DNA of 64,000 bases, from the NCBI GenBank assembly GCA_012474735.1, contig GCA_012474735.1_4085.1; one strand, 5' to 3'. Numbering within the stretch: the stretch's first letter is position 1; the number at the start of each line of letters is the position of its first letter. The notes under the pieces were generated by a model that worked only from the letters and a program-made list of their open reading frames with translations, had not been told where the DNA came from and did no database searches. Origin of the DNA: a phage. The position numbers were made by a program, and so were the translations under genes. Positions 48,829 to 50,779 of this stretch are shown one piece after another.

Positions 48829-49191
48829 CGTTTTAATCTCTCTTAATGTGTAGCGGGAAGTGTTCCCGCTCTCGATGTAAAACATTATACGCTTTTATCA
48901 GTACGGTGCAAGTACTTTCTACAAATACTTTTAAAATAGTTTTCTTTCTATATAGGGGAACTATTATTCAGTACTGCAACCATCCAGGGGAACTATCTTT
49001 CTATATAGGAGTACTATTATTCAGTACTGAATCAATCAACCAAATCACTACTACACCCCGTAAAACGGCCTCAGACGCATTCTAACGCATTAATACACCC
49101 AAGCTATACATTTGCACCATTCCAATCATTCCAGGGCTTTACAGGCCGTTTAAACGCGTTAAATTATTTTCAATTATTTTGTTTTTAGCTA

Positions 49192-49219
49192 TTGACTCAG
49201 TACTAAAAAAGCGTATAAT
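49192..49219 (+). promoter_or_regulatory. plus-strand sigma70-type promoter (TTGACT-N16-TATAAT)
   Basis: TTGACTcagtactaaaaaagcgTATAAT followed by ACCCCAGGGGGTGGGAAGATCCGTC. Confidence 0.5.
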
Positions 49220-49406
49220 TACTACATAGACGCGAGAAAGCGGATACCCCAGGGGGTGGGAAGATCCGTCCAAAATTCAAGATATAAAAAAAGGATACAC
49301 TCCCGCACCCTAGCAGGTTAACGCACTTTCTCAGTACTGAATTATAGTACCATAGTCCGGCCCAGGATGGCAAGCAAATTAATTAAAACTTTTTTCATCC
49401 AGGGTA

Positions 49407-49434
49407 TTGCTTTATTTTTCCAGTACTGTATAAT
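49407..49434 (+). promoter_or_regulatory. plus-strand sigma70-type promoter (TTGCTT-N16-TATAAT)
   Basis: TTGCTTtatttttccagtactgTATAAT followed by AGCCCACCGGGTGCATAGTTACGCCC. Confidence 0.5.
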
Positions 49435-50779
49435 AGTTCCATCAAGTCGAGAAAGACTCAAGCCCACCGGGTGCATAGTTACGCCCAAAATTCAGTACTG
49501 AAAAAATTTTTAAAAATATCCGTCCAGGCCGTTGACATTGCCCCCAGTTTATAAGATAATGATTCCAGATTCAGAAAAATCTAACTCCAGATACTGCGGG
49601 GAAACTATCCCCACGCGGTAGGGGAACTATTGGAAAAAACAAAATAAAATTTTGATTTAGCCGTCTATACTTCCAGACGTGTAACCATCTAGCCGTTTAG
49701 CCGTCTAGATGGATAGCCATCTTTACTTCCAGACTTCTGGAGGGCTAGACATATCTACGCCCAAAATCCATCCAGGGTAACTACGCCCAAAATCCGTCAG
49801 TACTATACCATAGATCTATCTTTTGAAAGGGAGTATTCAGTACTGCCATCATAGCCCTCACTATGTTACCCTAGGAGGATGAAGACTATCATGTAGTACT
49901 GAATACTGTTAGAGGGAATCCACCAGCTTGTGCTGGTGGCATAATGCTTTAGATTAAAATCAGTACTGACACCATTCTGTTAATATCAGTACTGTTATTA
50001 CGATTTTCATATGAGGTTCAAAAAGATGTACCACCACAGGAGGAACTATCTTTTCTGTACTGTCTCACGACAGGAGGTAGAGTAAATGAATTGTTCGCAG
50101 CAACTCATCTCTCTATGTAGAACATTATACAGTACTGAATCATAATGTCAATAGCTTTCTTTCATTATTCAGTACTGATATTCTTGAGAACTACCCGACT
50201 ACAAACATCATTATATCCCACAAATCATAAACGTCCCAACGTAAATTTCAACTTTCGAAGATCCAACTTTTATTTCATAGGTACTCCAAAATTTTTAGGA
50301 TCGAGATTTAGGATGGAGTACTAACCAACTTTTTGCTGGAGCCTCAAGGGGTAATTGAATTTTACCCCGAAGGGTAAAGGGGTAATTGAAATTAAGGTGA
50401 AAGTAATAATTCAGTACTAATCATTGCGTGATTACTTTTGATTACATTTGATGTAATTTGAAAAATGGAAAAGGAGCTTGGAAACTACAAAGTACGGCAG
50501 ACTTCCTCTGCCTACTTAGTGGCATATCAGTACTGAATCCTTCCCTAGCATTCTTGAGCAATCTTGTCTATACTAATCAGTACTGAATCATATATAATCA
50601 TTCTGTGATTCTACGGTGCTCATATAAATGTTTATATATGATTACTTATGACTACCTATGATTACGGGGTTTAGCCTGGGGAGAATCCTAGTGATCGCAT
50701 TTGTCCAGGCTGAATTTTAACAATTCGCCTGTACATAAAGGTTGTTCACTAGGAGCTTCCCCTGTCTACTTGTGTTTAA

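Follow-up and report, generated by a model that had tools for sequence, protein, structure and literature searches.

What is a long gap without evident genes doing beside the early genes of a jumbo phage? The question is raised by positions 48886-50779 of a 64,000-nucleotide stretch of phage DNA (GenBank assembly GCA_012474735.1, contig GCA_012474735.1_4085.1; the whole stretch is called the window here), which a sequence-only reading had proposed as a replication origin, a control region or a packaging site. We consider it very probable that this region is the promoter-proximal end of a direct terminal repeat (DTR) of ~20.4 kb together with 263 bp of adjoining unique DNA. By its sequence, the source phage is an Asteriusvirus jumbo coliphage of the 121Q/PBECO4/G17 group: positions 48600-51100 are 90-98% identical to ~40 Asteriusvirus jumbo coliphage genomes, CRJP21, JP4, PBECO4, 121Q, G17 and Sharanji among them. 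The final 1.63 kb of the DTR, upstream of the first early gene, make up one part of the region, and the 263 bp of unique DNA past the border make up the other:

30080-50516, no strand: DTR of ~20.4 kb, with the early-gene block and the non-coding leader
50517-50779, no strand: unique DNA from the DTR border to an array of genes of 60 amino acids (aa), with a variable segment (50526-50625), TGATTAC repeats and an inverted repeat

The long Asteriusvirus records carry the terminal repeat twice. In the G17 record, the two copies of 20,668 bp show 0 mismatches, and their ends map to window positions 30080 and 50516. Five independent records stop at the same base, 50516/50517, G17 and WPEC5 with their right ends and CRJP21, fEgEco12 and BF17 with their left ends; their shared end reads ...GTACGGCAGACTTCCTCTGCCTACT^ (also given as ...TCTGCCTACT^ and ...GCCTACT^; ^ marks the border). 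At ~30 kb, GC content jumps from 0.34 to 0.42, which coincides with the distal DTR border at 30079/30080. A sensitive search finds homologous DNA at record ends in distant relatives too: at 1156-1383 of Klebsiella phage Muenster, within its annotated 'terminal repeat region predicted by PhageTerm' (1..20030); at 86-1124 of fENko-Kae01, within the PhageTerm DTR 1..19736; and in the first 1-4 kb of Munch, XbC2, Yersinia fHe-Yen9-04 and Erwinia phages. Judged by these record ends, packaged genomes of the genus are shown to end exactly at 50516/50517, so the packaging part of the sequence-only reading holds: the DTR border, a physical genome end, lies inside the region. The terminus itself is ordinary and already mapped for the genus. 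Read-depth or read-start data on termini have been published for relatives (PMC13070987, PMC11895373, PMC6563267, PMC11218385, PMC5259590), with ends assigned by PhageTerm and restriction digests in fEgEco12 (20,993 bp; PMC13070987), by PhageTerm in Sharanji (DTR of 20,668 bp; PMC11895373) and fENko-Kae01, from read coverage in G17 (PMC6563267), and from read depth and pulsed-field gel electrophoresis in CBB (PMC5259590).

The 1.6-1.7 kb from the DNA end to the first early gene is conserved yet non-coding. As far as 54830, every gene around the gap is on the minus strand. In 121Q and JP4 the first early gene has 363 nt (121 aa) and an annotated start that corresponds to ATG 48828; this is probably its start here, and the non-coding stretch therefore begins at ~48829. 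The gap is unannotated in 121Q, G17 and PBECO4. Its longest open reading frames (ORFs) encode 79 aa (48846-49085, plus strand, overlapping the start of the gap) and 59 aa (50145-50324, plus strand). In an alignment of 12 genomes, these two and the others of at least 30 aa are broken by stops or frameshifts in the 11 relatives, the exception being one 44-aa ORF with a TTG start that is intact in 11/12 genomes and overlaps a conserved promoter. The claim that the region holds no ORF of 60 aa or more is thus essentially true, apart from the 79-aa frame across its start. In the same alignment, nucleotide conservation of the gap equals that of the neighbouring genes (0.8-1.0 per 20-nt bin). A tRNA search returned none, and Rfam 15 gave no match at gathering score and none relevant at E<=5 over 30-51 kb.

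How, then, is the DNA end made? The predicted cut site and the repeats on its inner side are as follows:

50477-50534, plus: predicted terminase cut site, hairpin GGCAGA-CTTCC-TCTGCC, then TACT^TAGTGGCATATCAGTACT, with the border between 50516 and 50517
50429-50462, no strand: three TGATTAC-type repeats, 10-bp-phased, 55-88 bp inside the cut, conserved in Asteriusvirus
50281-50322, no strand: subterminal inverted repeat GGTACTCC-N26-GGAGTACT with GATTTAGGAT repeats; tandem-repeat row at 50294-50318

The hairpin-forming inverted repeat has a fold z-score of -2.49, and in Asteriusvirus the cut falls in its 3' arm. The flank ACT^TAGTGGCATATCAGTACT is common to the window and Klebsiella phage RaK2/Muenster. 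Read from inside the repeat outward, the borders are:

proximal, window, 121Q and G17: ...gcctact^TAGTGGCATATCAGTACT
proximal, A4: ...gcctact^TAGTGGGATATCAGTACT
proximal, RaK2 (the base where the Muenster PhageTerm end falls): ...aacggact^TAGTGGCATATCAGTACT
proximal, CBB: ...aacggata^TAGCGGAAGGGG
proximal, fENko: ...gaagata^TAGCGGAAGGGGG
distal, window (30080/30079): ...gtaacct^TAGCGACTT
distal, fENko: ...catgcct^TAGCCACCC
distal, Muenster: ...ttaggct^TAGCACTTT

All 8 mapped borders read ^TAG(C/T) outward, and between the two borders of one repeat the core is inverted; the CBB record start is a proximal-type border once re-oriented. Terminase or a partner nuclease may recognise a site with the core (C/A)(C/T)(T/A)^TAG(C/T), in which case opposite strands would be nicked at the two borders and the repeat would be copied during packaging by strand displacement. 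A strand-specific nick followed by strand-displacement copying is the classical T7 model, and the inverted core is as expected from such a nick at each border with such copying; we infer this route for the present DTR by analogy. A cut-site core in inverted orientation at both DTR borders, in at least five lineages, suggests how a 20-kb repeat arises. On the window strand the distal border at 30079/30080 reads ...GAAGTCGCTA^AGGTTACCCGCC, which outward is CCT^TAGCGA, the same core as the proximal one. The 18 bp at the cut (TAGTGGCATATCAGTACT) are almost invariant among Asteriusvirus genomes, and nowhere in the locus do these genomes vary more than in the first 100 bp past the border (50526-50625).

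TGATTAC, counted five times in the sequence-only reading, has 4 exact copies plus variants, which form two 10-bp-phased clusters, 55-88 bp inside and 113-149 bp outside the cut. In the unique DNA there are 3-4 phased copies (50629-50665), followed by an inverted repeat with 23-nt arms (50672-50768). The subterminal inverted repeat on the other side is also found in fENko-Kae01 and the Salmonella Munch group. Phage P1 packages by headful without fixed DTR borders, and its pac site consists of short repeats flanking the cleavage point. The likeness to P1 pac lies in the clustering of short, helically phased repeats on both sides of the cut; unlike pac, the site here lacks the GATC/Dam motif, and the TGATTAC repeats are genus-specific.

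What does the rest of the gap do? It is a promoter-rich non-coding leader, as the idea of a control region had suggested. Its inward face is formed by these features:

48884-48911, minus: first early-gene promoter, -35 TTGCAC, 16-nt spacer, -10 TATAAT; a leader hairpin and ribosome-binding site lie between it and ATG 48828
48943-49045, minus: two tandem 53-nt repeats, each with CAGTACTG-AATAAT, weakly promoter-like
50124-50151, minus: strongest of the inward early promoters, TTGACA-16-TATAAT, its spacer containing CAGTACTG, a 12/12 match

The promoter and leader of the first early gene are the same cassette as at other DTR genes, and the copy number of the 53-nt repeats varies among relatives. 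Promoter 50151 has its predicted start at ~50117, 365-392 bp from the DNA end, with the typical leader GTTCTACATAGAGAG downstream. Taken together, inward (minus-strand) promoters lie at 50151 (12/12), 50239, 50251, 49373 and 48911, with weak tandem copies at 48969 and 49022, and outward (plus-strand) promoters at 49192 (11/12), 49407 and 49532 (11/12). Strong promoter-like sites are ~2-5x denser inside the DTR than outside, and 38/45 of the DTR sites are on the minus strand. The palindrome CAGTACTG (59 in the window, ~1 expected) usually sits in the spacer right before the -10 of sigma70-type promoters (TTGACA-N8-9-CAGTACTG-TATAAT), and the minus-strand promoters of this kind have a stereotyped leader, GTTTTACATC(G/A)AG(G/A)G, after the -10. 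A full-text literature search for CAGTACTG returned irrelevant papers only. In a by-eye comparison, none of the LexA, ArgR, TrpR, TyrR and MetR sites fitted CAGTACTG or TGATTAC. In CBB, RpoD-like promoters with UP elements have been predicted in the early region and the repeat (PMC5259590), and in the related jumbo phage PA5oct, RNA-seq showed DTR genes to be the most strongly transcribed early, with two highly expressed non-coding RNAs in the DTR (PMC7318152).

On the model of T7, T5 and SPO1, the promoter-proximal DTR end would enter the cell first. Host RNA polymerase would then start at the inward sigma70 promoters 50151, 50239/50251, 49045 and 48911, and the early genes would be read in the direction of DNA entry. 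T7, T5 and SPO1 have fixed ends and a DTR, with their early genes placed at the leading end, and the repeat is 10 kb in T5 and 13 kb in SPO1. The present element shares with them fixed, sequence-specific ends, a DTR and a non-coding leader with strong host-polymerase promoters before the first early gene, and also, as in T5 and SPO1, small early host-takeover genes within the repeat. It differs in that the repeat is ~20 kb and the leader 1.6-1.7 kb long and in that its cut-site motif is unrelated.

Several points count against the DTR reading. The termini of this particular genome are assigned from identical junction sequences in relatives, and the direction of DNA entry and the use of the promoters are argued from the example of T7 and T5. 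The TAG core is short, and homologous borders are not independent, which leaves roughly five independent observations. The many promoters claimed for the region fare unevenly: the top matches look real and are conserved, but a loose scan is not enriched over shuffles (11 found, 10.6 expected).

The outward promoters raise a further question, namely what is transcribed toward the DNA end. Three outward or convergent promoters would make short structured RNAs, which belong to two elements, a repeated unit RNA and a single element that we call E2:

49192-49275, plus: unit RNA copy 1, promoter TTGACT-16-TATAAT, start ~49226
49292-49373, minus: degenerate convergent partner of copy 1, promoter TTGCCA-18-TACTAT, then CTAGGGTGCGGGAGTGTATCC, then a T-run
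49407-49500, plus: unit RNA copy 2, promoter TTGCTT-16-(CAGTACTG)TATAAT, start ~49441
49532-49647, plus: element E2, promoter TTGACA-17-GATAAT toward the genome end, bulged 10-bp hairpin at 49592-49620
49752-49800, plus: two CTACGCCCAAAATCC copies, promoter-less remnants of the unit tail (cf. GTTACGCCCAAAATTC of copy 2)

Self-comparison of the sequence gave paralogous units at 49161-49291, 49376-49506 and 44738-44882. Their motif CCCACNGGGTG occurs 10 times in the window (0.6 expected), always inside the DTR, and the gap holds two to three of the 10 DTR unit copies. Each copy lies downstream of a strong promoter and has the same layout: promoter, covarying hairpin, CCCAYAGGGUG, wobble hairpin. 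In copy 1 these are the hairpin CGC-GAGAAA-GCG (49231-49242), CCCAGGGGGTG (49248-49258) and a wobble helix of 49254-49258 with 49267-49271; in copy 2, the hairpin AGTC-GAGAAA-GACT (49445-49458), CCCACCGGGTG (49463-49473) and a helix of 49469-49473 with 49482-49486. The family comprises 38 distinct copies, in Alcyoneus-, Eneladus- and Mimasvirus, CBB, fENko and metagenomic relatives. Hairpin 1 begins 2-3 nt past the predicted start, with 3-5 bp and a loop of GNGAAA or AGAUAA. It forms in 35/38 copies through 19 distinct complementary stems, and stems of at least 4 bp are found in 23/38 copies (shuffled mean 11, maximum 19). In helix 2, GGGUG after CCCAY pairs with YRYCY across an 8-nt loop (98.5% paired in 26 sequences), and all changes are wobble-compatible, which argues for an RNA of the promoter's polarity. 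Convergent pairs occur in the window (47308+/47366- and 49248+/~49311-) and also in GAP32, CBB, mg22 and pEa12.

The E2 hairpin is paired in 140/140 pair-cells across 14 sequences from at least five lineages, with compensatory changes in 6/10 pairs (GGGG/CCCC, CUAG/CUAG, CUGG/CCAG, AGGG/CCCU, CGGAA/UUCCG); a U-G to G-U swap fixes the strand. The covariation score is 0.451 against 0.156 in shuffles, with 0/500 shuffles as high, and the fold z-score is -3.05. On the 3' side of the hairpin follows a near-invariant AGGGGAACUA(A/U)UGGAAAA, which reads as a Shine-Dalgarno sequence, AUG or UUG and a variable mini-ORF of 3-14 codons; in the window, these are an AGGGGAA Shine-Dalgarno-like motif and a UUG/AUG mini-ORF (49630-49647). 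We compared the E2 hairpin, on the minus strand, with the type I-E CRISPR repeat of E. coli and rejected it as a mimic: its 17/29 matches are at chance and equalled elsewhere in the window (16 window sites reach at least 16), and in other genera the covarying stem departs from the repeat sequence.

The covariation of the unit RNAs and E2 is thus shown at the level of sequence, and we infer their transcription from the promoters. Both conserved elements, with their clear covariation, sit on the DNA presumed to be the first to enter the cell. Candidate roles for the unit RNA are stable decoy small RNAs or nut-like antitermination leaders. The antitermination leaders of lambda nut and rrn operons consist of a boxB hairpin and a conserved box. 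The units resemble them in a small promoter-proximal hairpin with a purine-rich GNRA-like loop (GNGAAA here) and a freely covarying stem, then a conserved single-stranded box, and also in the many intrinsic terminators downstream in this DTR. In contrast to nut and rrn leaders, several unit copies face away from genes or pair convergently, no boxA sequence was seen, although none was formally sought, and no N-like protein was identified. We reject a host origin of the unit RNA: it has no match in E. coli genomes, and its matches in the phage collection are confined to 48 records, every one with a host from the Enterobacterales (Escherichia, Erwinia, Yersinia, Salmonella, Pectobacterium, Cronobacter and Serratia), of which those identifiable are Rak2-like jumbo phages. 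Against Rfam, the unit RNAs match no family. CsrA-type GGA loops in hairpin 2 were considered and set aside, as they are not conserved in the Asteriusvirus copies. Further copies in the DTR lie at 31495, 33758, 36767, 39123 and 40800 (minus), 44835 and 47308 (plus) and 47366 (minus). In the minus-strand copies at 31495, 33758, 36767 and 40800, a terminator hairpin (GGGATTGACtccgGTCAGTCCC or a variant of it) contains the -35; the 47308+/47366- pair overlaps; and the plus-strand copy at 44835 is followed by a bidirectional terminator, which gives a predicted small RNA of ~100 nt.

E2 transcription would run into the feature that the sequence-only reading had taken for iterons:

49659-49762, no strand: octamer array of 13 contiguous in-phase octamers resembling the metbox of the methionine repressor MetJ, covering the TAGCCGTCTAG and TACTTCCAGAC repeats

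The array begins 12 nt past the stop of the E2 mini-ORF. Its best 8 boxes have 48/64 matches to (AGACGTCT)x8 (window background 16 +/- 3.3; maximum in 20 shuffled windows 33). Arrays of 11-20 boxes lie 3' of E2 in 121Q, A4, UE-S1, Yen9-04, pEa12, GAP32, XbC2, CBB and three metagenomic relatives, and, taken over 127 boxes from 8 of these phages, the majority-rule consensus equals the MetJ metbox, AGACGTCT, at all eight positions. We also scored the array by the published metbox rule (matrix of PMC3228920), under which a site has at least 2 contiguous boxes, each with at least 1/4 of the consensus bits, and a total of at least the consensus bits. By this measure the window array has 8 contiguous passing boxes with 58.3 bits (7.3 bits/box), plus two further boxes. 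Elsewhere in the 64 kb a single site passes, with 2 boxes, which is the chance level, and no shuffle exceeds 3 boxes and 21 bits. As positive controls, the E. coli K-12 metJ/metB operator gave 4 boxes with 7.8 bits/box and metF 4 boxes with 6.2 bits/box, with nothing else in 5.9 kb. The array thus resembles E. coli MetJ operators (PMC3228920) in its contiguous 8-bp units in one phase, its consensus and its per-box scores, which equal those of metB/J and metF; it differs in having 13-20 boxes rather than the 4 detected in each control, in lying downstream of a promoter and not over it, in the frequent C at position 3, and in its site at the end of a virulent phage genome and not at a met gene.

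RaK2, Muenster and fENko lack the metbox array. In these phages, 19-mers resembling the Fur box (GATAATGATAATCATTATC-like; e.g., GATAATGAGAATGATTATC) occur after E2 and beside unit RNAs, with 14-17/19 matches; by the same measure, the genuine Fur site of fepA-fes has 13/19. There are 7 such loci in RaK2, 8 in Muenster and 5 in fENko per 6-7 kb, and ~0.9 hits, counting both strands, are expected from shuffles. They cluster in the DTR leader, at 2220-3596 in RaK2, 3804-6597 in Muenster and 4759-6414 in fENko-Kae01. The window has no Fur-like 19-mer of at least 14/19. A single one lies at 2785 of Erwinia phage pEa12, between convergent unit RNAs.

Does host MetJ, with its corepressor S-adenosylmethionine (SAM), bind the array? 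Our best guess, at about even odds, is that it does. In that case, MetJ-SAM on the array would either gate transcription toward the DNA end or be titrated as phage DNA replicates, and in the Klebsiella relatives Fur boxes would take the array's place. What weighs against MetJ is partly the boxes themselves, which are asymmetric: C stands at position 3 in 46% (~10% in natural boxes), so that the consensus A at this position is a near tie, and G stands at position 6 in only 13%. The array also lies at ~+92 to +195 from the start of promoter 49532, with no strong promoter within 49659-49762 and hence no operator-promoter overlap, and XbC2 has the same array but Xanthomonas as its listed host. A literature search for MetJ or metboxes with phage genomes gave no relevant link.

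One alternative is that the array binds a phage protein (a small terminase subunit, a ribbon-helix-helix regulator or a partition-like protein) and that its metbox likeness is convergent or coincidental, which we regard as a possibility to be taken seriously, if short of an even chance. The asymmetric AGCC(G/A)TCT boxes often form 16-bp dyads (e.g., AGCCGTCT-AGATGGAT), lie ~750-860 bp from the packaging cut and vary in number between phages as typical protein-binding iterons do; together with the C at position 3 and the listed host of XbC2, this would suit a phage protein. It is harder to reconcile with a consensus that equals the metbox at every position, with per-box scores in the range of genuine E. 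coli operators (6.2-7.8 bits) and with the Fur-like arrays of sister genera, which exceed fepA-fes and, being at the same position, point to host regulators. Pfam searches, limited to the DTR, found no ribbon-helix-helix or MetJ-like domain in its 40 ORFs.

It is tempting to speculate more broadly, though our hold on this idea is tentative, that Rak2-like phages carry operator arrays of host metabolic repressors at the leading DTR end, fed by a conserved structured leader RNA, and that these act as sponges or as SAM and iron sensors gating transcription of the end. By their sequences, the arrays of Asterius-, Eneladus- and Mimasvirus would comprise 11-20 MetJ boxes, and those of Alcyoneusvirus and fENko-Kae01 would comprise Fur boxes. 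Binding of host repressors would give a virulent phage a simple route to read or rewire host SAM and iron metabolism, and copy-number-dependent sponges could derepress SAM/methionine synthesis or iron uptake as the genome replicates. We know of no description of outward promoters, structured RNAs or repressor-box arrays in the leaders of T7, T5 and SPO1. Among Rak2-like phages (G17, Sharanji, fEgEco12, fENko-Kae01, Muenster, CBB), the DTR is the same element, with a border identical in Asteriusvirus and homologous in Alcyoneusvirus and CBB; published accounts of these DTRs give repeat length and mapping only and do not discuss the cut-site motif, leader, RNAs or box arrays. As far as the literature that we searched goes, neither the conserved core at the cut nor either of the covarying RNA elements appears to have been described, and the same holds for the arrays of MetJ- and Fur-type boxes.

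Could the region instead be, or contain, a replication origin, primed or activated by its convergent promoters, with the octamers as initiator iterons? Precedents exist in the R-loop type origins oriF and oriG of T4 and in the transcriptional activation of lambda ori. Cumulative GC skew in the window reaches its minimum at 50287. Plus-strand skew at codon position 3 is ~0-0.09 to the left of the region and +0.37 and +0.23 to its right, though the 60-aa array genes there are on the minus strand. Strong convergent promoters and a repeat array are present, and these phages have a T4-like replisome (PMC5259590). However, the shift in skew falls together with the DTR border and a family of paralogous genes that share an ancestry, and it may therefore be compositional; it is compatible with rightward forks from near here and equally with the composition of a recently expanded gene family. 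Nor do the usual sequence hallmarks support an origin. There is no DnaA box (TTWTNCACA) between 37310 and 54665, that is, none within 12 kb to the left and 4 kb to the right. The region had been described as AT-rich, yet its GC content of 0.40 at 49-50 kb is among the highest of all 1-kb bins in the window (0.28-0.42), and there is no AT-rich unwinding element. The repeats are contiguous 8-mers that match a known repressor operator, not helically phased iterons of ~17-22 bp, and no Rep- or initiator-like Pfam match was found among the 40 DTR ORFs. An origin is therefore unlikely in our judgement. In the 60-aa array (50780-54830), third-codon GC skew is -0.37 on the coding strand, against ~0 in other minus-strand genes.

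That the gap instead encodes several very small proteins overlooked by annotation is very improbable, and we reject it: automatic pipelines do place 30-70-aa ORFs here in JP4 and WPEC5, Shine-Dalgarno-like motifs occur (AGGAGG at 50038 and 50072, AGGGGA at 49620) and mini-ORFs of 5-20 codons exist, but the ORFs of at least 30 aa are disrupted in relatives save the TTG frame over a conserved promoter, the peptide of the E2 mini-ORF is conserved no further than Met-Glu, and covariation favours RNA structure.

The other repeats listed for the region are all present, although several counts were overstated. GGGGAACTATT, given as four copies, has 2 exact ones and 2 at only 85% identity; the tandem 53-nt repeats are the source of three of the copies first counted. 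TAGCCGTCTA, TACTTCCAGAC and GGGGTAATTGAA occur twice each, and CTACGCCCAAAATCC has 2 copies and a diverged third. Palindromes put at more than 15 come to 7 for TCAGTACTGA; CAGTACTG occurs 12 times and AGTACT 19 times in the gap. The latter, a ScaI-type palindrome, occurs 262 times in the 64-kb window, within genes as well as promoters and most densely in the DTR (6.4 per kb), and 161 times in the first 26 kb of G17 (8.4 expected); it is possibly a binding site, a modification target or a promoter element.

One further hairpin lies in the gap:

49921-49940, minus: GC-rich 8-bp hairpin CCACCAGC-NNNN-GCTGGTGG, a minus-strand terminator in the G17 annotation (-16.5 kcal)

An exact consensus for the host protein IHF (AATCAAAATTTTA) adjoins the octamer array at 49645-49657 (minus) as a single site; over the window as a whole there are 6 such sites where 9.5 are expected, which is no enrichment. 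In the stretches 50027-50077 and 50087-50146, a 17-nt repeat, TGT(A/C)(C/T)CAC(C/G)ACAGGAGG, occurs twice, 34 nt apart, and yields two AGGAGG on the plus strand, or CCUCCU on RNA from promoter 50151; ORFs of 19-20 codons lie there on both strands.

Around the gap, tandem arrays of tiny paralogous minus-strand genes flank the DTR, encoding ~70 aa at 23870-30012 and ~60 aa at 50780-54830. Most early genes of the DTR are without a Pfam family. Those with domain matches, all on the minus strand, encode a ParE-like toxin (35031-35285), a DksA/TraR zinc-finger protein (38606-38863), a GNAT acetyltransferase (38186-38542) and a protein with a weak protein-kinase-like match (33842-34483).

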